Shown here piece after piece: positions 20,667 through 52,170 of a stretch of DNA of 64,000 nucleotides; position 1 is the first letter of the stretch, and every line of letters begins with the position of its first letter. The stretch comes from a plasmid. The notes beneath the pieces were generated by a model. It did no database searches and was not told the DNA's origin. It was given only the letters and a program-made list of their open reading frames with translations. The position numbers and the translations under genes were made by a program. The stretch lies in the sequence record NZ_CP088986.1; one strand, given 5' to 3'.

Positions 20667-21872
20667 ATGACGAATAACCCTACCGATGACAGCAGACCAT
20701 GGTCGGTCTTTCTTATTTTTCTGCGGCTTGGATTGACATCTTTTGGCGGCCCCATTGCGCACTTGGGCTACTTCCGCGCCGAATTTGTCACACGGCGGCG
20801 CTGGCTCTCCGAACGGAGCTATGCTGACTTGGTCGCGCTTTGTCAGTTCTTGCCAGGGCCTGCAAGCAGCCAGGTCGGCATAGCGGTAGGACTGTCTCGG
20901 GCTGGATACAGCGGGGCGCTGGCTGCTTGGGCTGGCTTCACGCTGCCGTCTGCCATAGCCTTGATCCTTTTTGCGCTCGGCATCTCCAGCTATGGCGATT
21001 ACGTCTCGCAGGGCGCGTTGCATGGCTTAAAAGTGGTGGCTGTGGCCGTGGTCGCTCAAGCAGTATGGGGCATGGCGCGTAACCTATGCACGGATGGGCT
21101 GCGAGTCACCATCATGGCAATTGCTACCTGCGTCGTTTTACTTGTGCCGTCCGCGTGGGGACAGGTTGGCGTGATTGCTATCGCAGGCATCGCAGGCCGG
21201 TTATTGTTCAAGCCAGCGAAAGTTGTTGAGCATGACCCCCTACCTATCACGGTCAGTCACCGGGCCGGCGTGCTTTGGCTCTCGCTGTTCTTTGTCTTGC
21301 TGATTGGCCTGCCGGTGTTGGCCGAACTGATGCCAAGTCAAACCATGGCAATGGTGGATTCCTTCTATCGTGTCGGATCACTGGTGTTCGGCGGTGGTCA
21401 CGTTGTGCTGCCATTACTGCAAGCCGAAGTGGTGCCCTCCGGCTGGGTCAACAATGAATCCTTTCTCGCGGGGTACGGGGCAGCTCAAGCGGTGCCCGGC
21501 CCTTTGTTCACGTTCGCCGCGTTTCTTGGTGCCTCGATGAACACCGCCCCGTCGGGCTGGATCGGCGGCATTGTGTGTCTGCTGGCTATCTTCGCGCCCT
21601 CGTTCTTGCTGGTCGTCGGATCAATGCCATTTTGGGAGCGTTTGCGCCGCAATACAGGCATCCAAGCTGCGCTGGCCGGGATCAATGCCGCTGTAGTCGG
21701 CTTGCTGCTGGCCGCGCTGTATCAGCCTGTATGGACTAGCGCCATCTTTCAGCCGCAAGACTTCGGCTTGGCATTAGTTGCCCTTGTCGCACTTATGTTC
21801 TGGAAGCTCCCGCCGTGGCTGGTTGTCCTCGGTAGCGGTGCAGCTGGGTGGCTGTTGAGCGTCGCTCTGTGA
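20667..21872 (+). CDS. chrA: chromate ion transporter ChrA (401 aa)
   Basis: Multi-TM CHR-family ORF; intact here. Confidence 0.85.
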   Translation: MTNNPTDDSRPWSVFLIFLRLGLTSFGGPIAHLGYFRAEFVTRRRWLSERSYADLVALCQFLPGPASSQVGIAVGLSRAGYSGALAAWAGFTLPSAIALILFALGISSYGDYVSQGALHGLKVVAVAVVAQAVWGMARNLCTDGLRVTIMAIATCVVLLVPSAWGQVGVIAIAGIAGRLLFKPAKVVEHDPLPITVSHRAGVLWLSLFFVLLIGLPVLAELMPSQTMAMVDSFYRVGSLVFGGGHVVLPLLQAEVVPSGWVNNESFLAGYGAAQAVPGPLFTFAAFLGASMNTAPSGWIGGIVCLLAIFAPSFLLVVGSMPFWERLRRNTGIQAALAGINAAVVGLLLAALYQPVWTSAIFQPQDFGLALVALVALMFWKLPPWLVVLGSGAAGWLLSVAL

Positions 21873-31460: not shown

Positions 31461-31795
31461 TGTCGCCGGGCTCCTCTTTTTACTGCGCCGGCTGACGCGG
31501 CGCGGCAGGAACGCTGCCTGTGGTCAGTGTCCCGCGTCCGGCCGGGCACGGGACGGGCGCTTTTACCGCTCCCGGCTGGCGTTGGTGACAGTGTACGCCA
31601 GCCCGTCGCCCTTTTCTGATGAACGCCCTTCAAGCCGCTTTCGCGGCATATCCTCGCCGTCAAAAAGACGACGGCTGCGGTATTCCACGGTCGGCCTGAC
31701 CCGTTACCGGACGCGGTGAACAGCCCACAGGCAGCGGGGAACGGGCACCACAGGGGTGCCCTCCCGGTGCCCTCTGTAAGAGAAGGAGTGCTGTT

Positions 31796-32479
31796 ATGTC
31801 CCGTTTTATCCTGGGTGACTGCGTGCGTGTTATGGCCACGTTTCCGGGCAATGCTGTCGATTTCATCCTCACCGACCCGCCGTATCTCGTCGGTTTCCGT
31901 GACCGTTCCGGGCGCACCATCGCCGGCGATAAAACCGATGAATGGCTGCAACCAGCCTGTAATGAAATGTACCGCGTACTCAAAAAAGACGCGTTAATGG
32001 TGAGCTTCTATGGCTGGAACCGCGTCGATCGCTTTATGGCCGCCTGGAAAAATGCGGGATTCAGCGTTGTTGGTCACCTGGTCTTCACCAAAAACTACAC
32101 ATCGAAGGCCGCATATGTGGGCTATCGCCACGAATGTGCCTACATCCTGGCAAAAGGCCGTCCACGTCTGCCACAAAACCCGCTGCCGGACGTGCTGGGC
32201 TGGAAATATTCGGGCAATCGCCATCACCCGACGGAAAAGCCCGTTACCAGCCTGCAACCGCTGATTGAGAGCTTCACACACCCGAACGCAATTGTGCTGG
32301 ACCCGTTTGCAGGCAGCGGCTCAACCTGCGTCGCCGCCCTCCAGTCCGGACGCCGGTATATCGGTATCGAGCTGCTTGAGCAGTATCACCGTGCCGGGCA
32401 GCAACGCCTTGCCGCCGTGCAACGGGCCATGCAGCAGGGGGCCGCGAATGATGACTGGTTTATGCCGGAGGCTGCGTAA
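31796..32479 (+). CDS. orphan DNA methyltransferase (DPPY motif; N6-adenine/N4-cytosine class)
   Basis: 227-aa ORF with FILTDPPY and C-terminal AdoMet motif (VLDPFAGSGST). Confidence 0.8.
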   Translation: MSRFILGDCVRVMATFPGNAVDFILTDPPYLVGFRDRSGRTIAGDKTDEWLQPACNEMYRVLKKDALMVSFYGWNRVDRFMAAWKNAGFSVVGHLVFTKNYTSKAAYVGYRHECAYILAKGRPRLPQNPLPDVLGWKYSGNRHHPTEKPVTSLQPLIESFTHPNAIVLDPFAGSGSTCVAALQSGRRYIGIELLEQYHRAGQQRLAAVQRAMQQGAANDDWFMPEAA

Positions 32480-33976: not shown

Positions 33977-34393
33977 TGACGTTGGCGGGGTAAATCCCCG
34001 CCTTTTTCCTGCCGGTCCCCGGACAGAGCACAAAGGAAGTCGCCGCCGGCTCCGCTTTACCCGGCCATGCGGGGCATGGCCTTGTGGGTTTTCAGTTATG
34101 TGGCCTCAGCGTCGTGTGCGGGCTGTGCCGTGCCTCCATCGTAGCCGGGCTGGCAGGGATGCAAGGGTACGCTTCGCCGCTGCGGTCACCCGGTCCCTCC
34201 TTCCCGTCTGCCGTGATTTTCCGGTCGTTCACCCGCTCAGATTTCGCGGTCTCACCCTCCAACTCCCGCCAGCCGTGTGCGTCAGGCTGCGGCTTCCCTT
34301 GCGCCCTGTGCATCCCCGCCTTATCGCCCGGCTTTTATGGAGGCACGGCACCGCCCGGTGTCGCGGAATATGTGAACAACGGAGGAAAACATC

Positions 34394-34819
34394 ATGCAAT
34401 ATGCGAAACCTGTCACTCTGAACGTTGAAGAGTGCGACCGTCTCTCCTTTCTACCGTATCTGTTTGGCAACGATTTTCTGTATGCCGAGGCGTATGTGTA
34501 CGCGCTGGCGCAAAAAATGATGCCGGAATATCAGGGAGGCTTCTGGCACTTCATCCGCCTGCCGGACGGTGGCGGTTACATGATGCCGGATGGCGACCGT
34601 TTCCACATGGTGAACGGTGCAAACTGGTTTGACCGTACCGTGAGTGCTGATGCCGCAGGCATCATTCTGACTTCCCTTGTGATTAACCGCCAGTTGTGGC
34701 TGTACCACGACAGCGGGGATGCAGGACTGACCCAGCTTTACCGGATGCGCGATGCGCAGTTGTGGCGTCACATCGAATTTCACCCCGAATGCAACGCGAT
34801 TTACGCGGCACTGGACTGA
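34394..34819 (+). CDS. klcA: antirestriction protein KlcA/ArdB family
   Basis: 141-aa [39 protein letters not shown]... Confidence 0.8.
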
Positions 34820-35476: not shown

Positions 35477-35672
35477 TACAGGGGCAGGCGGTGGAGGCCG
35501 CCTGTCAGCCCGCGCGAAAACCCCTGGCAGGCTGACGCCTGCCGGAAGGGAAGCGGGCCACGCTGGCGCGTCGCCCGTTACCCTTCCCGTCTGTGATGTG
35601 TCTGACTCAGGAGTGTTTCTTTCTTATGTTATGGAACTGTTCCTGATGTTGTTGTTCCTTTATCTACTGCTC

Positions 35673-36280
35673 TGATTCTGACTACTGCAGTGTTGTTCTG
35701 TCTGCCGGGCGCACCTTCGGCTCCCGGCTGCCTGGCGGCATCCGGTCGTCAGGCCCGACTCCGACAGGCAGCTGCTGGCGCACCTGCCAGTCTCCGCCGA
35801 ACCCGCTGGCGCGGTTTCGGGCTGCCGCTACGGTCCGATGCGTGAAAACCCCTGGCTTGCAGCGACCGTTCCGGTCGCGCCGCCTCTGTCGCGCCGTGGC
35901 CTGCGCTCCCGGCATCCCGGCAAAAGGCCGCCGGGATGTAAGGGGCAACGCCGTTTCGCGCACGCGCTCTCCGTCGTTGCGGCGGGCCCCTGCTCATTGC
36001 CTGCCGGGTGCCACACACCCGTATGAGTCCCTGTCGCCGGGGGCATAGACAGCCACAACCTGCCGCACTGACTGTCCAGGGTAAATGAACAGCCCACAAA
36101 ATTTTTTACCCAAAAACCGGTAAAAAATTTTGCGTTCTGCCCAGGACAGGTGCGTCAGGCCGTGGCAGTGATGCCCCTTGCGGCGAAGGTTCTCAAACGG
36201 GTGAAGTTCATACCACAGGGAATACAGCAGCAGGTTCCCGCGAAACGTCAAAACCGCGGCTCCCGAAACTCAACGGGTGA
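35673..36280 (+). repeat. structured leading-region repeat copy A (Frpo/ssi-like single-strand promoter element)
   Basis: ~600 bp GC-rich; >90% identical to copies at 39001, 49087 and partially 44935; abundant hairpin potential. Confidence 0.7.
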
Positions 36281-36513
36281 TGTTCTTTAAAAATCAGGAT
36301 TTATTTCAGGCTCCGGCAATACGCATTTATTTGTTCTGTCAGTCATCCGGCTGGCAGGTAATGAGAACGCAGGAACAGAAGGAGGAAAACACCGGAGAAC
36401 GTCAGACGCAGATATGAAAAAAGCAGGCCGGGGAGGACCTGCTTAATCCACACCGCAAAAACTGTTCGAGCAGTTTCTGCGGTTCCATTCAACAGTCATA
36501 AGGAGTTTCATTT

Positions 36514-36744
36514 ATGACGGTAAGTATTGTTTCACCTTCCGCAGCGGCTGTAAAGCCCCGCCGTCATCCCCGTTTCAGACGCGAAGACATCCCCGCGCCG
36601 GAAATTGACCCCGTGCTGAAAGCCTTCGGGCGACACATTGCCCGGAGTTTTCACCGGGGACGTGGTGTACACATCCCCGCCATGAAAAATACGGCTTTCG
36701 GGCAGGTGCTCCGCACACTCGAACTGAAACGCGCTTTTAACTGA
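36514..36744 (+). CDS. small hypothetical protein (76 aa)
   Basis: RBS AAGGAG before ATG. Confidence 0.45.
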   Translation: MTVSIVSPSAAAVKPRRHPRFRREDIPAPEIDPVLKAFGRHIARSFHRGRGVHIPAMKNTAFGQVLRTLELKRAFN

Positions 36745-36795
36745 TGAGGTGAGCCGCCCCGCGAGGGGCGGCAACAGACGGAAGGAGAACATTTT

Positions 36796-38157
36796 ATGAC
36801 ATTAGCTGCAATCACCATGACCGCCCCGGAAGCCGCCAGCCCTGTGCAGATGTACCGCGCGACCTACTCACCGGATGACAACAAACTGCGCCTGTATGCC
36901 GCGTCACGTCTTGACCCGGAGACGTATAAAAAAGTGCATGATGCCGGTTTCCGCTGGGCACCCAGACAGGCGCTGTTTGTCGCGCCAGCCTGGACACCGG
37001 GCCGGGAAGACGTGCTCCTCTCACTTGCCGGAGAGATTGAGGATGAAGACAGCACGCTCGCTGAACGTCAGGAAGCACGGGCGGAGCGGTTTACCGGATA
37101 CAGCGGAAAGCGGGCCAGTGAATCCGCACAGGCACTTGATGAAGTGGAAAGACTGGCCGCGATGATCCCGCCCGGTCAGCCCATTCTTGTGGGGCATCAC
37201 AGCGAACGCCGCGCCCGTCGTGATGCGCAGCGTATTGAAAACGGCATGAAACGTGCCGTGATGCTCTTTGAACGTGCGGAATACTGGGAAGAACGGGCGC
37301 GGTCGGCACTGCTTCACGCGAAGTATAAAGAACGCCCGGACGTTCGCTGGCGTCGTATCAAAAAAATCGAAGCTGATTTGCGCAAGGCTGAAAAGACCAT
37401 CGCACAGTCGCAGAAATATCTGACGATGTGGCGGGCTGAATCGCTGGATCTGAATATGGCAAAACTCATCAGCAGTCATGACCATATCAGCGCCTGTTTC
37501 CCGCTGGATACGTATCCGCGCCCGGCAGAAAAAAGCCAGTATGAAGGGAGCCGGTCGTTATGGTCGGCCCTGGATGATGACATCATCACCACGGAGCAGG
37601 CCCGCGAAATTGCGATCCGCTGTCATGAACGGCAGATTCAGCATCAGCAACGCTGGGTTAACCACTATCAGAACCGCCTGATCTATGAGCGTGCCATGCT
37701 GGACGAAAGCGGTGGTGTGGTTACCCGGATACAGGATTTTGAGCCGGGCGGGCAGATTTGCAGCCGGGGCGAGTGGCTGACCATCATTCGCGTGAACAAA
37801 AGCAACGGGGCGGTGAGTTCAGTCACAACGCCGAATTACAGTTTTCTCGGGTACAGCGGCACGATGAAAGTGACGCCCGATCGCATCACGGACTACAAAG
37901 CGCCATCGGCAGAAGAGGCTGCCGTCGCCAGACAGACCGCGAAGCGTCCACCGGTAGTCAACTATCCTGGGGAAGGTTTCCGGGAAATGACAAAGGCACA
38001 GTGGGCCGCCCTGCCCCGGGACTGTAAGGCCGTGCGCAGTGTGGCAGAAGCAGAAGACCACGGGGCATACCGCTACCGCCGCACAATGGACAATAATTTC
38101 CGCCTGGTGAATGTGTATATCACCGACATGAAAATCACGGAAATCCCACAGAAATAA
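36796..38157 (+). CDS. conserved leading-region protein, DUF3560-like (453 aa)
   Basis: Long ORF with RBS GGAAGGAGA; charged/coiled region. Confidence 0.6.
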   Translation: MTLAAITMTAPEAASPVQMYRATYSPDDNKLRLYAASRLDPETYKKVHDAGFRWAPRQALFVAPAWTPGREDVLLSLAGEIEDEDSTLAERQEARAERFTGYSGKRASESAQALDEVERLAAMIPPGQPILVGHHSERRARRDAQRIENGMKRAVMLFERAEYWEERARSALLHAKYKERPDVRWRRIKKIEADLRKAEKTIAQSQKYLTMWRAESLDLNMAKLISSHDHISACFPLDTYPRPAEKSQYEGSRSLWSALDDDIITTEQAREIAIRCHERQIQHQQRWVNHYQNRLIYERAMLDESGGVVTRIQDFEPGGQICSRGEWLTIIRVNKSNGAVSSVTTPNYSFLGYSGTMKVTPDRITDYKAPSAEEAAVARQTAKRPPVVNYPGEGFREMTKAQWAALPRDCKAVRSVAEAEDHGAYRYRRTMDNNFRLVNVYITDMKITEIPQK

Positions 38158-38203
38158 GGTATATCCCCCCGGGAAATCCCCGGGGGATGACGGAGATAAT
38201 GAC

Positions 38204-38767
38204 ATGCACAGTCAGTTAAGAGAACGTATCCGGCTGATGCGCGCAAGGCTGGATAACGCCGCGCCGGTTGCTGAAATCCGGGCTGAATCTCAGCTTTTTG
38301 TGACACCTGCCCCGGTCTGCGATCGCCTGGTGACGCTGGCGGAAATCAGCAACCGTGATCACATTCTGGAACCCTCTGCCGGGACCGGAGCCATACTGCG
38401 GGCGATTCGGGATACCGCGCCGGGGGCCATGTGTGATGCGGTGGAGATTAACAGCGGGCTGGTCCGGTATCTGCGGGAAAATTTTAACGGTGTCAGGGTT
38501 CAGTGTGGCGACTTCATGGAATGGCAGCCGGTGCAGTATTACAGCCGGGTTATCATGAATCCGCCGTTCAGTCACGGGCAGGATATCCGGCATATCCTGC
38601 GGGCTTTTTCCCTGTTGCGTCCGGGTGGTGTGCTGGTCGCCGTCTGTCTGAACGGGCCGCGCCAGCAGGAGAAGCTGTTGCCGTTTTCTGACGTCCGCGA
38701 GGAGCTGCCGCGCGGCACGTTTGCTTATACCCGTGTTCCGACGATGATTATTCGTCTGCGGGCCTGA
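38204..38767 (+). CDS. SAM-dependent methyltransferase (class I fold, NPPF motif; N6-adenine MTase-like)
   Basis: 187-aa ORF with EPSAGTGAI (motif I) and NPPF (motif IV). Confidence 0.7.
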   Translation: MHSQLRERIRLMRARLDNAAPVAEIRAESQLFVTPAPVCDRLVTLAEISNRDHILEPSAGTGAILRAIRDTAPGAMCDAVEINSGLVRYLRENFNGVRVQCGDFMEWQPVQYYSRVIMNPPFSHGQDIRHILRAFSLLRPGGVLVAVCLNGPRQQEKLLPFSDVREELPRGTFAYTRVPTMIIRLRA

Positions 38768-38935
38768 AGACGCCGGGCAGGCGGGAGGATAAATGCCTGT
38801 CTGTCCGCGTCGGGAAAAGACCGCGCGCCGGTGGCGCTGAAAGGGGCCGCGCTCACGCGCCGCCCCTTTCATTACGCGGAAGTTCTGACGGGGGCTTCTG
38901 TTTCTTCATGCCTGTCATTTGTCTGTTACTGATGA

Positions 38936-39605
38936 TGTTCCTGCTACTGCTACTGCTACTGCTACTGCTACTGCTACTGTTCTTCTTTTTCCTGCTGCTC
39001 TGATTCTGACTACTGCAGTGTTGTCCTGTCTGCCGGGCGCACCTTCGGCTCCCGGCTGCCTGGCGGCATCCGGTCGTCAGGCCCGACTCCGACAGGCAGC
39101 TGCTGGCGCACCCGCCAGTCTCCGCCGAACCCGCTGGCGCGGTTTCGGGCTGTCGCTACGGTCCGATGCGTGAAAACCCCCGGCTTGCAGCGACCGTTCC
39201 GGTCGCGCCGCCTCTGTCGCGCCGTGACCTGCGCTCCTGGCATCCCGGCAAAAGGCCGCCGGGATGTGAGGGGCAACGCCGTTTCGCGCACGCGCTCTTC
39301 GTCGTTGCGGCGGGTCCCTGCCCGTTGTTGTGTCCGGTGCCATACACCTGTTTAAGCCCCTGTCGCCGGGGGCAAAGACAGCCACAACCGTCTCCGCCAG
39401 TCCAGGGGTGAAATGCACATCCCACAAAAGTTTTTGCCCAAAAGCCGGCAAAAACTTTTGCGGTCTGCCCCCGGACAGTCGTTTCCGGCCGTGGCAGTGA
39501 TGCCCCTTGCGGCGAAGGTTCTCAAACGGGTGATGGTTAATACCGGAGGGAACAAACGGCAGGTCCCCGCAAAACGTCAAAACCGCGGCTCCCGAAACTC
39601 AACGG
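38936..39605 (+). repeat. structured repeat copy B preceded by (CTGCTA)6.5 microsatellite; upstream of ssb
   Basis: Microsatellite 38941-38979; repeat core from 39001. Confidence 0.7.
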
Positions 39606-39644
39606 GTGATGGGGGCTGAAAACATCAACAGAAGGAGGCACATC

Positions 39645-40178
39645 ATGGCAGTTCGTGGAATTAACAAGGTTGTACTCGTTGGTCGTCTGGGTAAAGACCC
39701 GGAAGTCCGTTACATCCCCAACGGGGGCGCAGTGGCAAACCTGCAGGTGGCCACGTCAGAAAGCTGGCGCGACAAACAGACGGGAGAAATTAAGGAACTG
39801 ACGGAATGGCACCGCGTGGTGCTGTTCGGCAAGTTCGCGGAAGTGGCTGGTGAGTATCTGCGTAAGGGTGCGCAGGTCTACATCGAAGGTCAGCTTCGCA
39901 CCCGTAGCTGGGAGGATAACGGTATCACCCGTTACGTCACCGAAATTCTTGTTAAGACCACGGGCACCATGCAGATGCTGGGACGTGCCGCAGGTACTCA
40001 GACTCAGCCGGAAGAGGCGCAACAGTTCAGCGGTCAGCCTCAGCCGGAATCACAGCCGGAACCGAAAAAAGGAGGCGCGAAAACGAAAGGTCGTGGACGT
40101 AAAGCCGCGCAGCCGGAGCCTCAGCCGCAACCGCCGGAGGGGGAGGATTACGGGTTTTCAGACGATATCCCGTTCTGA
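39645..40178 (+). CDS. ssb: plasmid single-stranded DNA-binding protein
   Basis: [48 protein letters not shown]...DDIPF. Confidence 0.95.
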
Positions 40179-40196
40179 CTGGCCTGAATGTGATAA

Positions 40197-40469
<273 letters not shown>

Positions 40470-40532
40470 GAGAGGTGCCGGACGGGAACGCGTCCGGCAG
40501 ACATACAACCATCCCAGCTAAAGGAGAAATAT

Positions 40533-42491
40533 ATGTCAGTTACAGAGTCTAAGGCAAAAACGGAGCGTAAATCCAGTCGTAAAGCTGCAAAAACGCAGGA
40601 AACTGCACTGTCTGCCCTGCTGGCGCAGACGGAGGAAGTGAGCGTGCCGCTGGCCTCGCTGATTAAGTCACCGCTGAATGTGCGCACGGTGCCGTATTCT
40701 GCGGAGTCCGTCAGCGAACTGGCGGACTCCATTAAAGGTGTCGGCCTGCTGCAGAATCTGGTTGTTCATGCCCTGTCGGGTGAGCGTTACGGTGTCGCCG
40801 CAGGCGGTCGCCGACTGGCAGCACTCAACATGCTGGCAGAGCGCAACATCCTTCCGGCTGACTGGCCTGTCCGCGTGAAGGTTATTCCGCAGGAACTGGC
40901 GACTGCCGCATCAATGACTGAAAACGGTCATCGTCGGGATATGCACCCTGCCGAACAGATTGCCGGATTCCGTGCAATGGCGCAGGAAGGCAAAACGCCT
41001 GCACAAATCGGTGATTTGCTGGGCTATTCACCCCGCCACGTTCAGCGAATGCTGAAACTGGCAGACCTTGCGCCTGTCATCCTCGATGCGCTGGCAGAAG
41101 ACCGCATCACCACAGAGCACTGTCAGGCGCTGGCGCTGGAGAACGACACCGCGCGTCAGGTGCAGGTGTTTGAAGCTGCCTGTCAGTCGGGATGGGGCGG
41201 AAAACCGGAAGTACAGACCATTCGTCGTCTGGTGACCGAAAGTGAAGTGGCGGTGGCGGGGAACACTAAATTCCGCTTTGTGGGGGCTGATGCCTTCTCA
41301 CCTGACGAACTGCGCACCGATTTGTTCAGCGACGACGAGGGTGGCTATGTGGACCGTGTGGCGCTCGATGCCGCTCTGCTGGAAAAACTCCAGGCTGTCG
41401 CTGAACACCTTCGGGAAGCCGAAGGCTGGGAATGGTGCGCCGGGCGCATGGAGCCTGTTGGTGAGTGCCGTGAGGATGCCGGAACATACCGCTGTCTGCC
41501 GGAGCCGGAAGCGGTGCTGACGGAGGCGGAAGAAGAACGCCTGAACGAACTGATGACGCGTTACGACGCGCCGGAAAATCAGTGTGAGGAATCCGACCTG
41601 CTGGAAGCAGAAATGAAGCTGATGCGCTGTATGGCGAAGGTCAGAGCGTGGACGCCGGAGATGCGTGCCGGAAGCGGTGTGGTGGTGTCCTGGCGTTACG
41701 GCAATGTGTGTGTCCAGCGTGGTGTGCAGTTGCGCAGTGAAGATGACGTGGCTGACGACGCTGACCGCACGGAACAGGTGCAGGAAAAGGCCTCCGTGGA
41801 GGAAGTCAGCCTGCCGTTGCTGACGAAAATGTCCTCAGAGCGCACGCTGGCAGTCCAGGCAGCACTGATGCAGCAACCGGACAAATCCCTGGCACTGCTG
41901 GCATGGACGCTCTGTCTGAATGTGTTTGGCAGCGGAGCGTACAGTAAACCAGCACAAATCAGCCTGGAATGTAAACATTATGCGCTGACCAGCGATGCGC
42001 CATCGGGGAAGGAAGGTGCTGCATTCCTGGCGCTGATGGCCGAAAAAGCCCGTCTTGCAGCCCTGCTGCCGGAGGGATGGTCACGGGACATGGCGACGTT
42101 CCTGTCACTCAGCCAGGAGGTACTGTTATCCCTGCTCAGTTTCTGCACCGCATGCAGCATCCACGGCGTTCAGACCCGTGAGTGTGGTCACACGTCACGC
42201 AGTCCGCTTGACCCGCTGGAAACCGCTATCGGATTCCACATGCGCGACTGGTGGCAGCCGACAAAAGCGAACTTCTTCGGACACCTGAAAAAGCCGCAGA
42301 TTATCGCAGCCCTGAATGATGCCGGACTGTCCGGTGCCGCCCGGGACGCGGAGAAGATGAAGAAAGGCGATGCGGCTGAACATGCAGAGCACCATATGAA
42401 AGACAACCGCTGGGTGCCTGGCTGGATGTGTGCACCACGTCCACAGACGGATACCACTGAACGCACCGATAACCTGGCTGATGCCGCCTGA
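40533..42491 (+). CDS. ParB/Spo0J-like nuclease-domain protein (652 aa)
   Basis: N-terminal ParB box (…GLLQNLVVH…) in long ORF; conserved in F-like leading regions. Confidence 0.75.
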   Translation: MSVTESKAKTERKSSRKAAKTQETALSALLAQTEEVSVPLASLIKSPLNVRTVPYSAESVSELADSIKGVGLLQNLVVHALSGERYGVAAGGRRLAALNMLAERNILPADWPVRVKVIPQELATAASMTENGHRRDMHPAEQIAGFRAMAQEGKTPAQIGDLLGYSPRHVQRMLKLADLAPVILDALAEDRITTEHCQALALENDTARQVQVFEAACQSGWGGKPEVQTIRRLVTESEVAVAGNTKFRFVGADAFSPDELRTDLFSDDEGGYVDRVALDAALLEKLQAVAEHLREAEGWEWCAGRMEPVGECREDAGTYRCLPEPEAVLTEAEEERLNELMTRYDAPENQCEESDLLEAEMKLMRCMAKVRAWTPEMRAGSGVVVSWRYGNVCVQRGVQLRSEDDVADDADRTEQVQEKASVEEVSLPLLTKMSSERTLAVQAALMQQPDKSLALLAWTLCLNVFGSGAYSKPAQISLECKHYALTSDAPSGKEGAAFLALMAEKARLAALLPEGWSRDMATFLSLSQEVLLSLLSFCTACSIHGVQTRECGHTSRSPLDPLETAIGFHMRDWWQPTKANFFGHLKKPQIIAALNDAGLSGAARDAEKMKKGDAAEHAEHHMKDNRWVPGWMCAPRPQTDTTERTDNLADAA

Positions 42492-42545
42492 TGAACAACC
42501 ACACCGCCCCGCCGGAGACGGGGCGGCAGCAAGGGAGATACCGTG

Positions 42546-42980
42546 ATGAAAACTGAACTGACCCTGAATGTATTACAGACCATGAACGCACAGGAATATG
42601 AAGATATCCGGGCTGCCGGAAGTGATGAACGCCGTGAGCTGACTCACGCCGTGATGCGGGAGCTGGATGCCCCGGATAACTGGACGATGAACGGCGAGTA
42701 CGGCAGCGAGTTTGGCGGCTTTTTCCCCGTCCAGGTCCGTTTCACGCCTGCCCACGAACGTTTTCACCTGGCGTTATGTTCACCAGGTGACGTCTCTCAG
42801 GTCTGGGTGCTGGTTCTGGTCAATGCCGGTGGTGAGCCGTTTGCGGTGGTTCAGGTGCAGCGGCGGTTTGTACCGGAAGCCGTCAGCCATTCACTGGCAC
42901 TGGCGGCGTCACTGGATGAACAGGGATACAGCGTCAGTGACATCATCCATATCCTGATGGCGGAAGGAGGTCAGGCATGA
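42546..42980 (+). CDS. psiB: plasmid SOS inhibition protein PsiB
   Basis: [40 protein letters not shown]... Confidence 0.9.
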
Positions 42981-43696
42981 GCGCATGTTCACAGGCACTG
43001 GTTCCCCTCAGCACAGAGCAACAGGCCGCATGGCGGGCGGTGGTGGAGACGGAAAAACGCCGCCATCAGGGAAACACGCTGGCGGAATATCCGTATGCGG
43101 GGGCGTTTTTCCGCTGTCTGAACGGAAGCCGCAGGATTTCGCTGTCTGACCTGCGATTTTTCATGCCATCCCTGACCGCAGAAGAACTGCGCGGTAACCG
43201 TCTTCAGTGGCTGTATGCCGTCGATGTGTTGATTGAAACACAGGGCGAGGTCTGCCTCCTTCCCCTTCCCGGTGATGCGGCAGAGCGGTTGTTCCCGTCG
43301 GTGCGGTTCCGTGTCAGGGAACGCAGTCGCCATAAATCCGCGCTGGTCATGCAGAAGTACAGCCGTCAGCAGGCACGGGAGGCAGAGCAGAAAGCCCGTG
43401 CGTACCAGGCGCTGGTTGCTCAGGCTGAAATCGAACTGGCATTCCATTCACCGGAAACAGTCGGAAGCTGGCATGCCCGCTGGAGTGACCGGGTGGCGGA
43501 GCATGACCTGGAAACGCTGTTCTGGCAGTGGGGTGAGCGTTTTCCGTCACTGGCCGGGATGGAACGCTGGCAGTGGCAGGATATGCCGTTCTGGCAGGTC
43601 ATCGCGGAAGCCAGTATGGCGGCAAGGGAGGCCGGTCATGTTGTCCGTGAGATGGAGCGGTGGATGGTGCCGAACAAACTCCGGGAGGTGGCGTGA
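42977..43696 (+). CDS. psiA: PsiA
   Basis: 239-aa ORF overlapping psiB stop. Confidence 0.85.
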
Positions 43697-44214
43697 TGCA
43701 GAACGCCAGACATCCGAAAACACACAGGGAACTGTGTGAACTGGCCTGCCGTTTTCTCCGCAACAACGGCTTTAAGGTGGTGTTCGGTGACCGTTTTCAC
43801 GCATGGACGCCCTGCGGTGAACATCCTGATGCCCTGGGCTTCCGTAACGGAGCGTCATGTCTCATTGAGGTGAAATGCTCACGGTCTGATTTCCTGGCTG
43901 ACCGGAAAAAGGTGTTCCGGTCAGAGCCGGAAAAGGGCATGGGAGACTGGCGTTTTTATCTCTGCGAGCCGGGGGTGATTACCGTGGCCGATTTACCGGC
44001 GGGCTGGGGGTTGCTGTATGCGATTAACGGGCGGGTCAGGAAAGTACATGGCTGGCCCGGAAATCATCAGTGGGTGGTTACGGTCGCGAAACCGTTCAGG
44101 GCAAACAAACAGGCTGAATGCGATTATCTGTTCAGTGCTCTGCGTCGGCTGGAAATCCGGGGCGTGACGGAGAACGGTGCAGATGCTGACAGGGTGCAGA
44201 CATATGGGCTATGA
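43696..44214 (+). CDS. conserved leading-region protein (flmC-position); possible PD-(D/E)xK-fold protein
   Basis: 172-aa ORF; start ATG overlaps psiA TGA; D...EVK motif (HPDALGF...LIEVKCS). Confidence 0.55.
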   Translation: MQNARHPKTHRELCELACRFLRNNGFKVVFGDRFHAWTPCGEHPDALGFRNGASCLIEVKCSRSDFLADRKKVFRSEPEKGMGDWRFYLCEPGVITVADLPAGWGLLYAINGRVRKVHGWPGNHQWVVTVAKPFRANKQAECDYLFSALRRLEIRGVTENGADADRVQTYGL

Positions 44215-44289
44215 TGTGCCCGGCGCTTGAGGCTTTTTGCCTCATGACGTGAAGGTGGTTTGTTACCGTGTTGTGTGGCAGAAAGCAGA

Positions 44290-44360
44290 AAGCCCCGTAG
44301 TTAATTTTCATTAACCCACGAGGCCCACTGTATGTCTAACCAACACCAGTATGGCCTCTT
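44290..44360 (-). ncRNA. sok: putative Sok-like antisense RNA of hok/mok locus
   Basis: Position antisense to mok start/hok leader, by analogy with R1 hok/sok; not delimited from sequence. Confidence 0.3.
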
Positions 44361-44547
44361 ACCGTGCAAATTGCAAGGAGGAGTAAACCATGAAACTACC
44401 GGGAAACGCCCTTATCTGGTGCGTATTAATCGTGTGCTGCACGTTGTTGATATTCACACTCCTGACCCGGAATCGCCTGTGCGAAGTCCGGCTGAAGGAC
44501 GGATACAGGGAAGTTACGGCAACAATGGCTTACGAATCCGGCGGTAA
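44332..44547 (+). CDS. mok: Mok (modulator of killing) overlapping reading frame
   Basis: 71-aa ORF overlapping hok in +2 frame. Confidence 0.5.
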
Positions 44548-44551
44548 GTAG
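44390..44551 (+). CDS. hok: Hok/FlmA-family membrane toxin (53 aa)
   Basis: [53 protein letters not shown]; RBS GGAGGAG. Confidence 0.8.
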
Positions 44552-44934
44552 CAACCTGGAGGCGGGCGCAGGCCCGCCTTTTCAGGGCTGATGCTGGTCT
44601 GACTGCACTGAAGCGCCTTTATAAAGGGGCTGCTGGTTCGCCGGTGGCCCCTTTCTCCTTGCTGGCATTGTGCGGGCATGAACAACCAGACTGCCAGGAA
44701 GGCCGTTTCCCTCCGGGAACGGGGAAGAACGCGCGCCTGCGGCGCCCGTTCTTTTCCCCCGCCTTCTCTGTTTATGACCTGTCAGAAATCACATCCCTTC
44801 CCTTTGATTATTCTCTTTTTCCTCCTGTTCTGACTCTGATTACTGCTGCCCTGATTATTGTCTGTTTTGTTGTTCTCCTGGCTGTGTCTTTTCCGGGCGT
44901 CCCCCTGGCGGGCTTCCATCCCTGACGCGAAACC

Positions 44935-45365
44935 CCGGGCTTGCAGCGACCGTTCCGGTCGCGCCGCCTCTGTCGCGCCGTGGCCTGCGCTCCTGGCATC
45001 CCGGCAAAAGGCCGCCGGGATGTAAGGCGCAACGCCGTTTCGCAAACCGCGCTTCACGTCGTTGCGGCGGGTCCCTGCCCGTTGTTCTGTCCGGTGCCAT
45101 TCACCTGTTTAATCCCCTGTCGCCGGGGGCATAGACAGCCACAACCTGCCGCACTGACTGTCCAGGGTAAATGAACAGCCCACAAAATTTTTTACCTAAA
45201 ACCCGGTAAAAAATTTTGCGTTCTGCCCAGGACAGGTGCGTCAGGTCGTGGCAGTGATGCCCCTTGCGGCGAAGGTTCTCAAAAAGGTGATGGTGAATAC
45301 CGGAGGGAATAAAAGGCAGGTCCCCGCAAAACGTCAAAACCGCGGCTCCCGAAACTCAAAAGATG
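44935..45365 (+). repeat. structured repeat copy C (3' two-thirds only; divergent 5' part 44780-44934)
   Basis: Aligns with copies A/B/D from AAACCCCGGGCTTGCAGCGACCG onward. Confidence 0.65.
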
Positions 45366-45719
45366 ATGGGGGCAAAAAACAGAGGTGTATTAAAGATGGG
45401 CAGAAATATGTCAGCAGCACGTACCGATGGCTTTATTCGTAATATTCATTCCCGCAATCCCTTTGATGTTATCCGGGCTGATGTGGTGATCAGCAGGCTG
45501 GAAAAGCAGGCTCATTGGGGATGTGGTCTGCACTATGAAATTTATGAAGCGAATTTGTTTGATATGGCGATGAATCATCTTTCCCGGCTTCCTCTGAAGG
45601 ATCGTCCGGTATTCATTGGTGCTGCTGCACGAAAGGGGCTTTTTCTGACGATGGAAGAAACCAGGCTGGCACGGGAAGCGAAAGATGCTCTGATGGCTGA
45701 ACTTGCTCTGGAATACTGA
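45363..45719 (+). CDS. hypothetical leading-region protein (up to 118 aa; probable start MGRNM/MSAAR)
   Basis: ORF immediately after repeat C. Confidence 0.45.
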   Translation: MMGAKNRGVLKMGRNMSAARTDGFIRNIHSRNPFDVIRADVVISRLEKQAHWGCGLHYEIYEANLFDMAMNHLSRLPLKDRPVFIGAAARKGLFLTMEETRLAREAKDALMAELALEY

Positions 45720-45839
45720 AAATCGGGCCGCACCGTCGTCCCGGATAGTGCTGAAATATTTAATGTGGAGAGAATGGATGGGATATATCACATATGTTAC
45801 AGATCAACGGTAAGCGACTCGTCAGAACCGTATTGATAT

Positions 45840-47411
45840 TTACTGAGAGCTCAGATCAACTTTCCAGGGCAACAGATCGCGTACCCGGTTTGCCGGCCAG
45901 TCCTGGATATGTTCAATGACGTAACGCAGCCACTTTTCTGGCTCCACATTGTTCAGACGGCATGTGCCGATCAGCGAGTACAACACCGCCGCATGTTCAC
46001 CACCGCTGTCGGAACCCGCGAACATCCAGTTTTTCCGGCCTACGGCCACTCCCCGTAAGGCGTTCTCTGCGATGTTGTTGTCGATTTCCACCCAGCCATT
46101 ACTGCAGTACACGTTCAGTGCATCCCACTGTTTCAGCAGGTATGCGAACGCTTTTGCCGTATCTGAGTGACGCGACAGTGTTTTCATCTGTTGCTGTATC
46201 CAGTCATACAGTGACTGCATCAGTGGCGCGGCTCTGGCTTTTCTTGCCGCCAGACGCTGTTCTGCTGAACAGCCCCGGACCTCTGCCTCGATGGCATACA
46301 GTTCACCGATACGCTGCAGGGCTTCCGTGGTGATGTAGGTGGGCGCTCTTGCATGCACATCGTGGATTTTTCTCCGGGCATGAGCCATACACGCGGCTTC
46401 CGTTATTCTGCCGGATTCGTATAACGCCCGGTAACCACCGTAAGCATCGGCCTGAAGCACACCGCTGTAACCGGCCAGGTGATTTTGTGGATGGATACCT
46501 TTCCGGTCCGGACTGTACGCGAACCAGACCGCCGGGGGCATCTGTGAACCGGCGTTACGGTCATCACGGACGTAGACCCACAGCCGGGCTGTCCGGGTTT
46601 TACCGCTGCCCGGCTCCTGGACCGGGACGGGGATATCATCAGCATGGACTTTACCGGGCATCAGCACATACTGGCGCAGGACGTCATACAGCGGCTCCAG
46701 CAGTTCAGCAACAGCACCTGTCCAGCGCCCCAGTGTGGCACGGCTCAGCTCCACTCCCTGACGACGGTATATTTCTGACTGGCGGTATAACGGCAGATGG
46801 TCTGCATATTTCCCGGTGACAACATGGGCCAGAAGCCCCGCTCCGGCATAACTGCGTGCAATGGGTTTTGAAGGTACTGGTGCCTGCACGATATGGTCGC
46901 ACCGGCAACAGGCCTGTTTCGGACGTTGTGTTTCGATAACCTTAAAGGCGCTGCTGATAAGCTCCAGTTGCTCTGACACATCACATCCCAGAGAACTGAG
47001 TTCACCACCACAGGCAGGACAGCATTCCTCTTCCGGCCGGATAACCCGGGTTTCACGGGGAAGTGAGGCCGGTAACGGTTTACGGGCTGAAGACTGGCGC
47101 AGGGCGGATGGCAGTACCGGGTCATATTGCTCACCCAGCGTTTCCGCCATTTCTTCCTGAAGTGCGCTGATTCGCTCCTGTGCTTCCTGTATCTGCCGTT
47201 CGGTTTTTGCACGAAGTTTTTCTGAGCTTTTACCGAACTGCATACGTTGCAGTTTCGCAACCAGCGCCTTCAGCCGGTTGATTTCGGAAGCATAAGCCGC
47301 CACCCGCTGTGAGAGCAGGCGGTTGTATTCAGCCATCTGGCGGATGGTGTCCTGTTGCGTCTGCAACAGTGCCCGCAGGCGGGCGTTCTCATGAGCAAGT
47401 GAGGTGTCCAT
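45840..47411 (-). CDS. tnpC: IS66-family transposase TnpC (523 aa)
   Basis: Leucine-zipper N-terminus, CxxC zinc motif, DDE region. Confidence 0.85.
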
Positions 47412-47430
47412 ATCCTCACTTTACAACGGG

Positions 47431-47778
47431 TTATATGCGGATTCCAGCGCGTTCCGTTCGTTTCGGGTGCTTCCAGTTGATACCTTCAAGAAGCATGGAT
47501 AACTGAGCCGGAGTAAGGTGCACCTTGCCGTCACGGGTGACTGGCCAGACGAAGCGGCCCCGCTCCAGGCGTTTGGTGAAGAGGCACAGTCCGTCACTGT
47601 CAGCCCACAACACTTTTATCTGGTCACCCCGGCGTCCGCGGAAGATGAACAGGTGTCCGGAGAACGGGTCATCCTTCAGGACGTTCTGAACTTTTGATGC
47701 CAGGCCGTTAAAGCCATTTCGCATATCGGTGATACCTGCAACCAGCCAGATACGCGAACCTGCAGGGAGAGATATCAT
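47431..47778 (-). CDS. tnpB: IS66 Orf2 (TnpB, 115 aa)
   Basis: MISLPAGSRIWLVAGITDMRNGFNGLA... Confidence 0.85.
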   Translation of the reverse strand: MISLPAGSRIWLVAGITDMRNGFNGLASKVQNVLKDDPFSGHLFIFRGRRGDQIKVLWADSDGLCLFTKRLERGRFVWPVTRDGKVHLTPAQLSMLLEGINWKHPKRTERAGIRI

Positions 47779-48455
47779 CAGTGGCTGCTCCCTTTTATTT
47801 CGCGGATAAGTGTCTGTAATAACGCCGGCGTCAGTTTACCTTTAAGCCTGAGAGTTCCGGCCGGCAGAACCAGCTCACAACACAGACTGTCGGACGGTGT
47901 ATTTATCTGCTCTGGTTCCTGTGCGGGGGCCGGGATTTTATTATCCGGCTCCGGCGTTAACGTCACGGGAAGCAGTGCCGGCATATTTTTTCCGGAAGGC
48001 AGCAGGCCACCTTTCCGGTATTGATGGCGCCAGTTGAAGAGCAGGTTATCGTTGATTCCGTTTTCCCGGGCGATCTGCGCCACACAGGCTCCGGGCTGCA
48101 GTGACTGCTCCACTAAGGCGATTTTAAACTCATAAGGGAAGTTGGGCCGCCGGGGACGTTTTTTTACCATGGGGGCTTCGGATATAACGGTGCTTTCAGG
48201 ACGTACGACTGGTACCGTGGAAAATTGTCCGTAAAGGCAGGCATCAAGTTCCTGCTCCGACATGCCTGCGGGCAAAGGCCACGAAAGGCCAGCTCTCCGA
48301 AAGCGCACGAACATACTACAAACTGTTGATTTTGGTACACCCAGGCGACGCCCGGCCACAACCCGGGGTAAATGTTCTTCAAAGTGAAGACGTAAAGCTT
48401 CAGTGATCCAGGTCCGGTGTTTCATACGATAGTGTCCATTAAAAATGATGGACAT
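47778..48455 (-). CDS. tnpA: IS66 Orf1 (TnpA-like HTH protein; unusually long 225-aa frame, true start may be internal)
   Basis: ORF abutting tnpB start. Confidence 0.55.
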   Translation of the reverse strand: MSIIFNGHYRMKHRTWITEALRLHFEEHLPRVVAGRRLGVPKSTVCSMFVRFRRAGLSWPLPAGMSEQELDACLYGQFSTVPVVRPESTVISEAPMVKKRPRRPNFPYEFKIALVEQSLQPGACVAQIARENGINDNLLFNWRHQYRKGGLLPSGKNMPALLPVTLTPEPDNKIPAPAQEPEQINTPSDSLCCELVLPAGTLRLKGKLTPALLQTLIREIKGSSH

Positions 48456-48775
48456 TATTTTTGTAGAGCCGGAGGAAACAGACCAGACGGTTTAAATGAG
48501 CCGGTTACGATCAACGACCCGGTGAACCAGATATCCTGACCGGGAACACGTTTGCTGATCTGGAGATTTGTGATTCTGATGGGCATCTTCTGCTGAAAGT
48601 GTCTGCACCTGAAGCCGGCTGGACACACGAAAGCCTGAACCTTGTTCAGCCGCAGGAAGTGCAGGAGGGGAATGATGCATTTGATGCTTATCTGAATGGT
48701 ATATGGATCGGTTCGACAGAGGTCTGAACAAATCACGCCAGCAGAAGACGTTGCTGGCGTCTTCTGCATTCCCGG

Positions 48776-48841
48776 GGAGCTGTCGCGCGGCATGTTTGCT
48801 TATACCCGTGCCCCGAGATGATTATTTGTCTGCGGGCCTGA
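48776..48841 (+). pseudogene. 3'-terminal remnant of a second copy of the 38204-38767 methyltransferase gene
   Basis: ~90% identity of 48776-48960 to 38700-38930 including stop codon and downstream spacer. Confidence 0.6.
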
Positions 48842-49015
48842 AGACGCCGGGCAGGCGGGAGGATAAATGCCCGTCTGCCCGCGCCGGGAAAAGACAGCAC
48901 GCCGGTGGCGCTGAAAGGGGCCGCGCTTACGCGCCGCCCCTTTCATTACGCGGATGTTCTGCTGTGTGCTTCTGTCTTTTCATGCCTGTCATTTGTCTGT
49001 TACTGATGATGTTGT

Positions 49016-49692
49016 TGTTCCTGCTACTGCTACTGCTACTGCTACTGCTACTGCTACTGCTACTGCTCTTCTTTTTCCTGCCGCTCTGATTCTGACTACT
49101 GCAGTGTTGTCCTGTCTGTCGGGCGCACCTTCGGCTCCCGGCTGCCTGGCGGCATCCGGTCGTCAGGCCCGACTCCGACAGGCAGCTGCTGGCGCACCCG
49201 CCAGTCTCCGCCGAACCCGCTGGCGCGGTTTCGGGCTGTCGCTACGGTCCGATGCGTGAAAACCCCGGGCTTGCAGCGACCGTTCCGGTCGCGCCGCCTC
49301 TGTCGTGCCGTGGCCTGCGCTCCTGGCATCCCGGCAAAAGGCCGCCGGGATGTAAGGCGCAACGCCGTTTCGCAAACCGCGCTTCACGTCGTTGCGGCGG
49401 GTCCCTGCCCGTTGTTCTGTCCGGTGCCATTCACCTGTTTAAGCCCCTGTCGCCGGGGGCATAGACAGCCACAACCTGCCGCACCTGTCCAGGGTAAATG
49501 AACAGCCCACAAAATTTTTCACCCAAAACCCGGTAAAAAATTTTGCGTTCTGCCCAGGACAGGTGCGTCAGGCCGTGGCAGTGATGCCCCTTGCGGCGAA
49601 GGTTCTCAAACAGGTGATGGTGAATACCGGAGGGAACAAAAGGCAGGTCCCCGCAAAACGTCAAAACCGCGGCTCCCGAAACTCAACAGATG
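49016..49692 (+). repeat. structured repeat copy D preceded by (CTGCTA)7.5 microsatellite
   Basis: Microsatellite 49021-49068; repeat core from 49087. Confidence 0.7.
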
Positions 49693-49726
49693 ATGGGGGC
49701 TGAAAACATCAGATACAGGAGGAATT

Positions 49727-50132: not shown

Positions 50133-50954
50133 ATGCGATTAGCTTCCCGTTTTGGTCGATATAATTCTATTCGCCGTGAGCGCCCGTTAACGGATGACGA
50201 ATTAATGCAGTTTGTTCCATCTGTCTTTTCTGGTGATAAACATGAATCCCGGAGTGAGCGTTATACATATATCCCAACCATCAATATCATCAATAAGTTA
50301 CGTGATGAAGGTTTCCAGCCGTTCTTTGCCTGTCAGAGTCGGGTTCGTGATTTAGGACGCCGCGAATACAGTAAACATATGTTACGTCTTCGCAGGGAAG
50401 GGCATATTAACGGGAAAGAAGTTCCTGAAATTATCCTGCTTAATTCACATGATGGTTCATCCAGTTATCAGATGATCCCAGGAATTTTTCGTTTTGTCTG
50501 CACAAATGGCCTGGTGTGTGGGAATAATTTTGGCGAAATCCGCGTTCCACATAAAGGTGATATTGTCGGGCAGGTTATTGAGGGAGCGTATGAAGTGCTC
50601 GGTGTCTTTGATAAAGTCACTGAAAATATGGAGGCAATGAAAGAGATACATCTTAACAGTGACGAACAACATTTATTTGGCAGAGCTGCATTGATGGCCA
50701 GGTACGAAGATGAAAATAAAACGCCAGTGACGCCAGAACAAATAATTACTCCCCGCCGTTGGGAGGATAAACAGAACGATCTCTGGACAACCTGGCAGCG
50801 GGTTCAGGAGAATATGATAAAAGGTGGATTATCGGGGCGAAGTGCCTCCGGTAAAAATACCAGAACAAGAGCCATTACAGGCATTGACGGTGATATCCGA
50901 ATCAACAAAGCATTATGGATGATTGCCGAAAAGTTCAGGGAGTGGAAGTCATGA
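50133..50954 (+). CDS. DUF932/DUF945-family protein (273 aa; F-plasmid orf273/YubP-like)
   Basis: Conserved F-like leading-region ORF. Confidence 0.65.
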   Translation: MRLASRFGRYNSIRRERPLTDDELMQFVPSVFSGDKHESRSERYTYIPTINIINKLRDEGFQPFFACQSRVRDLGRREYSKHMLRLRREGHINGKEVPEIILLNSHDGSSSYQMIPGIFRFVCTNGLVCGNNFGEIRVPHKGDIVGQVIEGAYEVLGVFDKVTENMEAMKEIHLNSDEQHLFGRAALMARYEDENKTPVTPEQIITPRRWEDKQNDLWTTWQRVQENMIKGGLSGRSASGKNTRTRAITGIDGDIRINKALWMIAEKFREWKS

Positions 50955-51250
50955 TAATATAAGTAAAGCCCCGAAAAATTTTTCGGGGCTTTACTTATAT
51001 TATCATCCTGCGGCATTGCTGTGTCGTCTGATAGGCCTCAATTTCATCAACTGGCTTTTCGGTAGTCTGTAAATATTGTGCCCGCGAAAAATGGTCTGGC
51101 AGGAGGCTGCGCAGTTACCGGATATATATAAGATGGGGTCCCGCTTTGCGGGGCTTCGGCCAGTCAGCATTATCACTCATATGATATTTTTGTGTGTGGC
51201 CTTCCATGCCGCTGTCGCGGCATAACCGGTATTTGACAATGTATACAATA

Positions 51251-51760
51251 TTAATTGTTCTGCACACTGTTAATTTGGGAAAGTGATTTCTTCGTGGTCG
51301 GAACCCGGATGCCTTTACTGCTCTTTATCCAGGTATAAATCCGGTAAACCTCTGATGCGTAGGCAAGACGTCTCTGGTTCTGGCGTTCGGTCTTCCTGAA
51401 TCCGGCATTGTATGCACCAACGGCCTCCCAGGAGACTCCCCATTTTTTAAAGGCTATTGCCAGATAATAAGCACCGGTATAAATGTTCATGCAGGGATCT
51501 GTTGTCAGATGTTCCGGCTTAATTCCATAGCGGGCCAGTTCGTTAAAATGCTGGGAATCTACCTGCATCAGTCCGCTGCCATATCCCGTTACCGGATTAA
51601 TACCAATGGCATTAACCCGGTAACGGGATTCTTTCCATGATATCGCTCTCAGTAAATCCGGGTCTATTTTGTAATCCCGACCTGCAAGATCAAAGCAATC
51701 GGCGGCTTCGCAGATCCCATTTATAAACATCAGGCAGATTGCTAACATCCATTTTTTCAT
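51251..51760 (-). CDS. lytic transglycosylase gene X (orf169)
   Basis: [19 protein letters not shown] signal peptide + SLT domain; adjacent to oriT. Confidence 0.85.
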
Positions 51761-51819: not shown

Positions 51820-52170
51820 ACAGGTTGGTGGTTCTCACCACCAAAAGCACCACACACTACGCAAAAACAAGTTTTTGCTGATTTGCTTTTTGAATCATTA
51901 GCTTATGTTTTTAATAATGTATTTTAATTTATTTTACATTATTAAATAGGGTCGTTGACGACCCTATGGCGACCCTATGGCGACCCTTGTTAGGGTCAGT
52001 ACTGACAAATTTTATGAAAAACATTTGGATATATTAGGGCCGCCCCTAGCAGCGCCGTGCGTTTTTTTATAGTATGCCCCTAGGGGCGCTGCTAGGGGTG
52101 CTCTTCTTTTTTCAGACCAAACTATGAGTAAATGAAATAAAACACTTGTTTCAGAATATAAAAGGTACTG
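51820..52170 (-). other. oriT: oriT region (R100-type nic sequence GTGTGGTGCTTTTGGTGGTGAGAACCACC on minus strand; TraM/IHF/TraY binding repeats)
   Basis: 51821-51860 reverse complement matches F/R100 nic region; inverted/direct repeats upstream of traM. Confidence 0.75.

Follow-up and report, generated by a model that had tools for sequence, protein, structure and literature searches.

The 64,000-nt stretch of plasmid record NZ_CP088986.1 analysed in this study (hereafter, the window) is the leading region of an IncF plasmid. It matches the IncF plasmid pVE155 at 98.8% over 14.7 kb, and its Rfam matches include the traJ 5' untranslated region (UTR), FinP and sok. Within this region lie four direct repeats in a single orientation, at approximately 35.6-36.3, 38.6-39.6, 44.9-45.4 and 48.7-49.7 kb, which we designate copies A to D. 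A repeat search, MAFFT and blastn place them at 88-97% identity, and blastn found no further copies in the 64-kb window. All four are plus-oriented and lie 5' of plus-strand genes. Homology, strand, structure, covariation and gene context, all read from the sequence, indicate that the repeats are very probably class 1 single-stranded DNA (ssDNA) promoters, the Frpo, single-strand initiation (ssi) or ssp1 elements of the IncF leading region. Such elements are already known and are ordinary for this plasmid group, and an earlier note on this DNA had identified them correctly.

On the plus strand, copy A spans 35636-36282, copy B 38646-39636, copy C 44930-45381 and copy D 48722-49723, as defined by blastn and by alignment to the Frpo1 and Frpo2 repeats of the F plasmid and, for A, by downstream Pfam matches. 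The extents given for B and D are those of their mutual homology, and copy C consists of the core only, with an F-type 5' flank. By blastn, C and D are 97% identical over 452 nt (44930-45381 and 49260-49708), B and D 90% identical over 1007 nt, and A is 89-91% identical to B and to D over about 650 nt. The earlier note described four near-identical, GC-rich elements in one orientation, and our searches agree; the GC content of the repeats is 58-64%, compared with 54% for the whole window. The four loci that it gave also hold, but the homology between B and D extends further upstream than it had proposed. This homology crosses a (CTGCTA)n microsatellite and reaches the final ~120 nt of a methyltransferase gene. 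The segment at 48722-48843, 5' of copy D, is a ~90% match to the end of the methyltransferase gene preceding copy B, and hence more than the promoter alone was carried along in some past duplication or recombination. The microsatellites are perfect, with 6.5 units 5' of B (38941-38979) and 7.8 units 5' of D (49021-49067), and are embedded in a pyrimidine-rich tract, to which a CT-rich one in F corresponds in position. Finally, the copies share an invariant 25-mer, CAAAACCGCGGCTCCCGAAACTCAA, found on the plus strand at 36249-36273 (A), 39578-39602 (B), 45335-45359 (C) and 49662-49686 (D). Allowing up to three mismatches, this motif occurs exactly four times in the window and not at all in shuffled sequence.

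Just upstream of traM, positions 51843-51855 of the minus strand carry an R100-type nic motif of the origin of transfer (oriT), GTGT|GGTGCTTTT; traM, the traJ 5' UTR and FinP all lie downstream of it. This makes the minus strand the one that is transferred (the T-strand), and everything below 51.85 kb the leading region, which enters the recipient first. The T-strand is the template of the plus-strand leading genes, and all the genes downstream of the copies are encoded on the plus strand. Copy D lies ~2.3 kb from nic, C 6.6 kb, B 12.3 kb and A 15.7 kb, so that D would be the first copy to enter the recipient. A single-strand initiation site of another kind, F ssiE, is matched at 92% by a segment of the minus strand at 51068-51256, 0.6-0.8 kb from nic and between the DUF932 and SLT transglycosylase genes.

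Compared block by block, the window copies are 88-100% identical to F Frpo1 (ssiD) and Frpo2. F ssiD, which together with the other homologues from outside the window was taken from Supplementary file 4 of Samuel et al. (2024; PMC11541004), aligns with the copies. No alignment was obtained between the repeats and ssp2, the hairpin found 5' of ardB/yfgB.

Minimum free energy (MFE) folding with DNA parameters turns the T-strand of each copy into a single long imperfect hairpin of ~260-315 nt, with 99-126 pairs as counted in A and D. All the hairpins lie on the minus strand. That of copy A (35982-36241) has 99 pairs, a loop at 36110-36119 and a 16-bp AT-rich tip, and that of copy D (49367-49682) has 126 pairs and a loop at 49523-49532. 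In copy C, the upper 59 pairs span 45120-45272 around a loop at 45196-45205, and the stem goes on below. The coordinates of the copy B hairpin (39310-39570) were carried over from copy A by the homology offset. Common to the hairpins are the AT-rich tip of 16 bp, a bulge of 8 nt on the 3' arm (TTCATTTA) and a small internal loop that is conserved; in copy D, the stem is closed at its base by the invariant 25-mer. The T-strand of a 628-nt copy A segment folds at -179.2 kcal/mol (z = -9.1 against shuffles), compared with -167 kcal/mol (z = -7.8) for the plus-sense strand.

Conservation of this hairpin was assessed in a 12-sequence alignment comprising copies A-D, F Frpo1 and Frpo2, ColIb-P9 ssi1-3, and homologues from Serratia and insect metagenomes, with a mean column identity of 66%. 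Compensatory changes occur in 17 of the 45 consensus hairpin pairs. Paired cells amount to 94.4%, as against 83.5% in shuffles (0 of 500 reached the observed value) and 36-47% in slid-partner controls. When the two strands were folded independently by MFE, the T-strand was more stable than its complement in all 12 homologues, by a margin of 4-17 kcal/mol. G-T wobbles number 49 on the T-strand and 6 on the complement, a count biased towards the T-strand because the structure was derived from it, and the alifold comparison of the two strands (-9.7 versus -8.2) was uninformative. An Rfam search at gathering thresholds returned no family for the repeats. The earlier note, which called the elements Frpo/ssi-like single-strand promoters, had advised aligning the copies and folding each strand, and its reading would have fallen if no conserved T-strand hairpin existed. 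Alignment and folding revealed such a hairpin, with covariation and a T-strand preference in every homologue. At the level of sequence, homology, the strand carrying nic, fold stability, covariation and strand preference agree in supporting that identification.

Neither strand of copies A and D, when scanned, showed a linear sigma-70 consensus. The result is consistent with a promoter inactive in the double-stranded state, and it means that the boxes are not readable off one strand. Their placement was guided by class 2 hairpins, in which TTGCAT ... TAAGAT lie on the 3' arm of the T-strand. By analogy with these, the putative -35 box is TGGACA, contained in CCCTGGAC on the 3' arm and located on the minus strand at 36073-36078 (A), 39399-39404 (B, as TGGACT), 45159-45164 (C) and 49486-49491 (D). 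The putative -10 box is the weak hexamer CTGTCT preceded by TGn, which lies at the conserved internal loop, also on the minus strand, at 36047-36052 (A), 39376-39381 (B), 45133-45138 (C) and 49463-49468 (D). A paired spacer of 17 bp separates the two candidates; in A, C and F Frpo2, three additional bases bulge from it. Across the 12 homologues, the helix containing the candidate -35 is near-invariant (6 of 8 pairs unchanged), whereas 7 of the 11 pairs in the spacer helix show compensatory changes. A near-invariant helix at the candidate -35 followed by a freely covarying spacer is the pattern expected of a protein-recognition box and a purely structural spacer. In addition, the template-arm 25-mer GCAGTGATGCCCCTTGCGGCGAAGG is identical in all four copies, indicating that the promoter core is intact. 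Modelled on this placement, transcription would start near 36177-36183 in copy A, and at the equivalent positions in B-D, and run out of the hairpin base. The invariant 25-mer would then have two roles, closing the DNA stem at its base and contributing to the 5' UTR. Other placements, with boxes at the AT-rich tip or with a TTGACG that lies within the 25-mer of the 5' arm, were considered and rejected, as the homologues from Serratia, insect and ColIb do not conserve their spacing or their candidate -10.

The genes downstream of the repeats, searched with Pfam, form a distinct block for each copy. Copy D occupies the position of F Frpo1 and precedes orf98/ygeA (49727) and DUF932/ygeB (50133-50954). 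Copy B occupies the position of F Frpo2 and is followed by ssb, a DUF905 gene, a ParB-like gene, psiB and psiA. Downstream of copy C lie orf107 (45396-45719) and orf80, the latter disrupted by a 2.7-kb IS66-family (ISCro1-like) insertion at 45810-48503 on the minus strand. Plasmid p4_4.2 is free of this insertion, and there copy C is followed by orf107 and orf80. The copy A block comprises orf76 (36514), a DUF3560 gene and a class I SAM methyltransferase gene. The products of orf76, orf98, orf107 and orf80 gave no PHROGs or NCBIfam match, and the Pfam run on orf76, orf98 and orf107 gave no match above cut-offs.

The earlier note had placed every repeat directly 5' of a gene block with a ribosome-binding site (RBS). 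This is accurate for B, C and D, where an RBS and an ATG follow within ~35-45 nt (ssb ATG at 39645, orf107 ATG at 45396, and ATG at 49727 for D). It does not apply to A, where a 240-nt gap precedes orf76. For copy C, an ATG at 45363 falls inside the repeat, and the start of orf107 was taken as 45396 instead. The gap behind copy A holds an Rfam match to the AS-pc01 antisense RNA (36418-36519, minus strand, 89.7 bits), which overlaps the RBS and start codon of orf76 and includes a terminator-like hairpin at 36444-36421. This arrangement suggests antisense control of the copy A operon. We also observed that annotation pipelines put "hypothetical protein" coding sequences and "frameshifted single-stranded DNA-binding protein" pseudogenes on the Frpo repeats of the compared records, for instance at 13142-13411 and 21231-21436 in one record and at 7174-7716 in another. 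The repeats account for these spurious calls, which probably arise as artefacts, from the hairpin sequence and from the duplicated stretch 5' of ssb.

Considered together with published work on related plasmids, these features outline how the repeats would operate. During conjugation, the minus strand would enter the recipient 5'-first from nic at ~51.85 kb, and each repeat on the entering strand would snap into its long imperfect hairpin. The host sigma-70 RNA polymerase could then find, in the duplex stem, the TGGACA -35-like box, a paired spacer and a -10 region that is unpaired in part. The polymerase would leave through the hairpin base and proceed along the T-strand into the downstream genes, namely ygeA/ygeB from D, orf107 from C, ssb to psiA from B, and orf76, DUF3560 and the methyltransferase from A. 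The transcripts may also prime complementary-strand synthesis. Once the DNA is double-stranded, the hairpins would be lost and the promoters silenced, confining expression of establishment and anti-defence genes to a short burst. In F, Frpo proved to be a sigma-70 ssDNA promoter and primer source in vitro (Masai and Arai, 1997, as cited in PMC9849209), and ssDNA-dependent transcription of the F orthologues has been demonstrated in vitro and in vivo (Couturier et al., 2023, PMC9849209; Wen et al., 2025, PMC12672017). The ColIb orthologues, like those of F, are transcribed by sigma-70 RNA polymerase from ssDNA and are silent as duplex DNA. Early transient expression and priming have been demonstrated for both F and IncI orthologues. 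Moreover, 5' RACE (rapid amplification of cDNA ends) has mapped the class 1 transcription starts of pESBL in a study that also defined classes 2 and 3 (PMC12672017). Priming from ssp1/Frpo has been validated in vivo, and a replication roadblock at ssp2 was reported in the same work (bioRxiv 10.64898/2026.01.09.698686).

Some observations weigh against this scheme. The candidate -10, CTGTCT, matches TATAAT poorly and lacks an A at -11, and a weaker alternative pair of boxes, TTGAGA-17-CATCAC, lies on the 5' arm and would direct transcription up the stem. In copy A, the base of the right arm is divergent (60% identity to the others) and the first gene is distant, and the copy C operon is cut by the IS66-family insertion. 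The irregularities of A and C also bear on another explanation, in which only B and D work, and A and C are decaying duplicates kept as recombination substrates or scars. In line with such decay, the copies are mosaic, with at least two sequence types per segment, and cassette content varies between plasmids exactly at the repeats, of which F has two, an ST131 plasmid three and this lineage four; earlier authors have also proposed recombination at Frpo repeats (PMC3817090; PMC9849209). However, A and C retain the helix of the candidate -35, the internal loop and both 25-mers, the identical one of the template arm and the invariant one at the 3' end, and their hairpins match those of B and D in stability. 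Their 3-nt spacer bulge is also present in the functional Frpo2 of F. Furthermore, the divergent lower arm of copy A is changed on both sides and is still paired, and the position of this copy is conserved in typical three-copy plasmids. We consider it unlikely that A and C are mere remnants.

It is possible, if rather doubtful, that the repeats are chiefly ssi sites laying down RNA primers for the complementary strand at four points, with gene expression as a secondary effect. F ssiD was originally recovered as an ssi site, the RNA-DNA hybrids formed by Frpo transcripts persist and are used by DNA polymerase III (PMC7690428), and rifampicin-sensitive early conversion near ssp1/Frpo loci has been observed in vivo (bioRxiv 10.64898/2026.01.09.698686). 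The spacing of the copies at 2.3, 6.6, 12.3 and 15.7 kb from nic could suit Okazaki-like start points as well. A priming role is nevertheless compatible with promoter function and does not exclude it. Two features argue against priming as the chief role, namely that every copy lies 5' of a co-oriented gene block with an RBS, and that a separate ssiE-type site exists beside oriT. Action at the RNA level, as a structured 5' UTR, a processing site or an inter-operon insulator or terminator in read-through mRNA, is very unlikely. The plus-sense strand does fold well and the 25-mer falls in the predicted 5' UTR, but the T-strand, which is antisense to the mRNA, is the more stable strand in every homologue and carries most of the G-T wobbles, subject to the bias noted above. 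Neither an Rfam family match nor a terminator-like T-run after the repeats was found. Finally, long internal inverted repeats in multiple copies might recall non-autonomous mobile elements resembling miniature inverted-repeat transposable elements. This explanation is hardly credible for repeats with a fixed orientation, always placed in the leading region 5' of genes, with no target-site duplications or terminal inverted repeats at their ends, and with 10,485 of 10,599 places (99%) on plasmids among 5,426 Escherichia coli genomes. A function as class 1 ssDNA promoters therefore appears to account best for the four copies.

The mosaic structure of the copies deserves separate consideration. 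A table of variable sites reveals each copy to be a patchwork, with at least two alleles per segment. Copy A is 100% identical to F Frpo2 at the base of the left arm, and copy B is 100% identical to F Frpo1 in the upper stem. The tip of copy B is of the F Frpo1/ssiD type and is set apart from A, C and D by changes that compensate each other across the two arms (T to G opposite A to C, and A to G opposite T to C). The right-arm base that is unique to copy A pairs with A's own left arm. The 5' flanks also come in two types. The flank of copy C, TCCCCCTGGCGGGCTTCCATCCCTGACGCG, is that of F Frpo1 and Frpo2, whereas A, B and D share a different module of ~190 nt that is itself structured (fold z = -4.3). 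The earlier note had observed that C lacks the 5' ~150 bp present in the other copies; the module is indeed absent, but C carries the F-type flank in its place. The modular evolution that the note proposed is matched by the allele pattern of the copies. Both flank types recur beside other ssDNA-promoter candidates, in Salmonella and metagenome elements. Together with the mosaic copies, this suggests that the repeats have recombined with one another or undergone gene conversion, as others have proposed for Frpo repeats. It is possible, if rather doubtful, that the repeats are not only promoters but also junctions of a recombination-driven cassette system, and that the flank modules are perhaps separate ssDNA elements. 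If so, IncF and IncI plasmids would swap, duplicate and lose promoter-led establishment and anti-defence cassettes by homologous recombination. The unit of exchange would be a promoter hairpin with one of two interchangeable structured 5' modules, of the A/B/D or the C/F type. Such modules could act as barriers that delay complementary-strand synthesis, prolonging the single-stranded state of the promoter.

Repeats of this family are widespread. The survey of Samuel et al. (PMC11541004) counted 6,006 conjugative elements with, between them, 13,089 homologues of Frpo. The 5,000 best-matching PLSDB records together contain 13,672 places, with a mean of 2.7 per record, and in a spread sample of 60 records one, two, three, four and five copies were found in 5, 14, 31, 7 and 3 records, respectively. 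Among the 5,426 complete E. coli genomes, 3,469 (64%) carry the element, with a median of three per genome; the 10,599 places are distributed over 4,147 records, and at least four copies were found in 4 of the 60 records of a spread sample. In a typical ST131 IncF plasmid, the A, B and D positions are occupied, giving three copies, while p4_4.2 and pVE155 have all four. Four copies are thus above the mode of three but not rare, at least four being present in 7-17% of the sampled records, and copy C is the less common extra. The view expressed in the earlier note that four is more than usual is valid against the two copies of F, but not against the family at large.

Elements of this kind govern the initial minutes of plasmid establishment through SSB, SOS inhibition, anti-restriction and methylation, and their presence flags orf76, the DUF3560 and methyltransferase genes, and orf107/orf80 as candidate establishment or anti-defence genes. 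For this window, the value of the analysis lies in annotation, and the current understanding of such promoters is unchanged. Two other segments of the window resemble ssDNA promoters of the remaining classes. An orthologue of ssp2, whose minus strand folds, is found at 34080-34400, 5' of an antirestriction gene (34394-34819). It is near-identical to the F region 5' of ardB/yfgB, has TTGCAT ... TACGAT on the 3' arm, and is ~90% identical to an insect-metagenome Frpo' candidate. A candidate ssp3-like promoter at 31512-31736, just 5' of a DNA methylase gene (31796-32479), contains an inverted repeat with 30-nt arms 165 nt apart, and its T-strand fold has z = -6.3. With the four hairpins, the ssp2 orthologue and the candidate ssp3 would bring the number of early operons to as many as six. 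Elsewhere in the window, an Rfam AAC_AAD_leader/attI match at 17334-17415 (68.8 bits) indicates a class 1 integron unrelated to the repeats.

The closest counterparts of the window repeats are those of F (NC_002483), which has two, one 5' of ssb (Frpo2, ssp1b) and one 5' of ygeA/ygeB (Frpo1, ssiD, ssp1a). A core of ~430 nt aligns along its full length between F and the window, and the AT-rich tip, the 8-nt bulge, the CCCTGGAC helix, the internal loop, the 3' 25-mer and the orientation to oriT are all shared, as are the gene blocks of B (ssb to psiA) and D (ygeA/ygeB). Unlike F, the window has four copies that are mosaics of both F alleles, and it carries two extra cassettes, orf76-DUF3560-methyltransferase and orf107/orf80. 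The ~190-nt 5' module of A, B and D is absent from F, and only C has the F-type flank. More distant are the IncI1 class 1 elements ssi1-3 of ColIb-P9 and pESBL (Bates, 1999; Nasim, 2004; Wen, 2025). These are likewise dispersed repeats of the leading region, each heading an operon, and their hairpin is homologous to that of the window copies, with compensatory changes between them. They differ in a more divergent sequence, in the lower stem and 3' end, which is without the 25-mer, and in their cargo, ardA. The class 2 (ssp2) and class 3 (ssp3) promoters found in F and in pESBL (Wen, 2025; Fraikin, 2026 preprint) would share with the window repeats the principle of a T-strand hairpin that reconstitutes the promoter boxes. 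Their overall sequence is different from that of the window repeats, with a local likeness around the -35 (CATTTACCCTGGACA versus CACTTTACCCTTGCAT), and ssp2 is distinguished by its clearer boxes (TTGCAT ... TACGAT) and its reported replication-roadblock activity.

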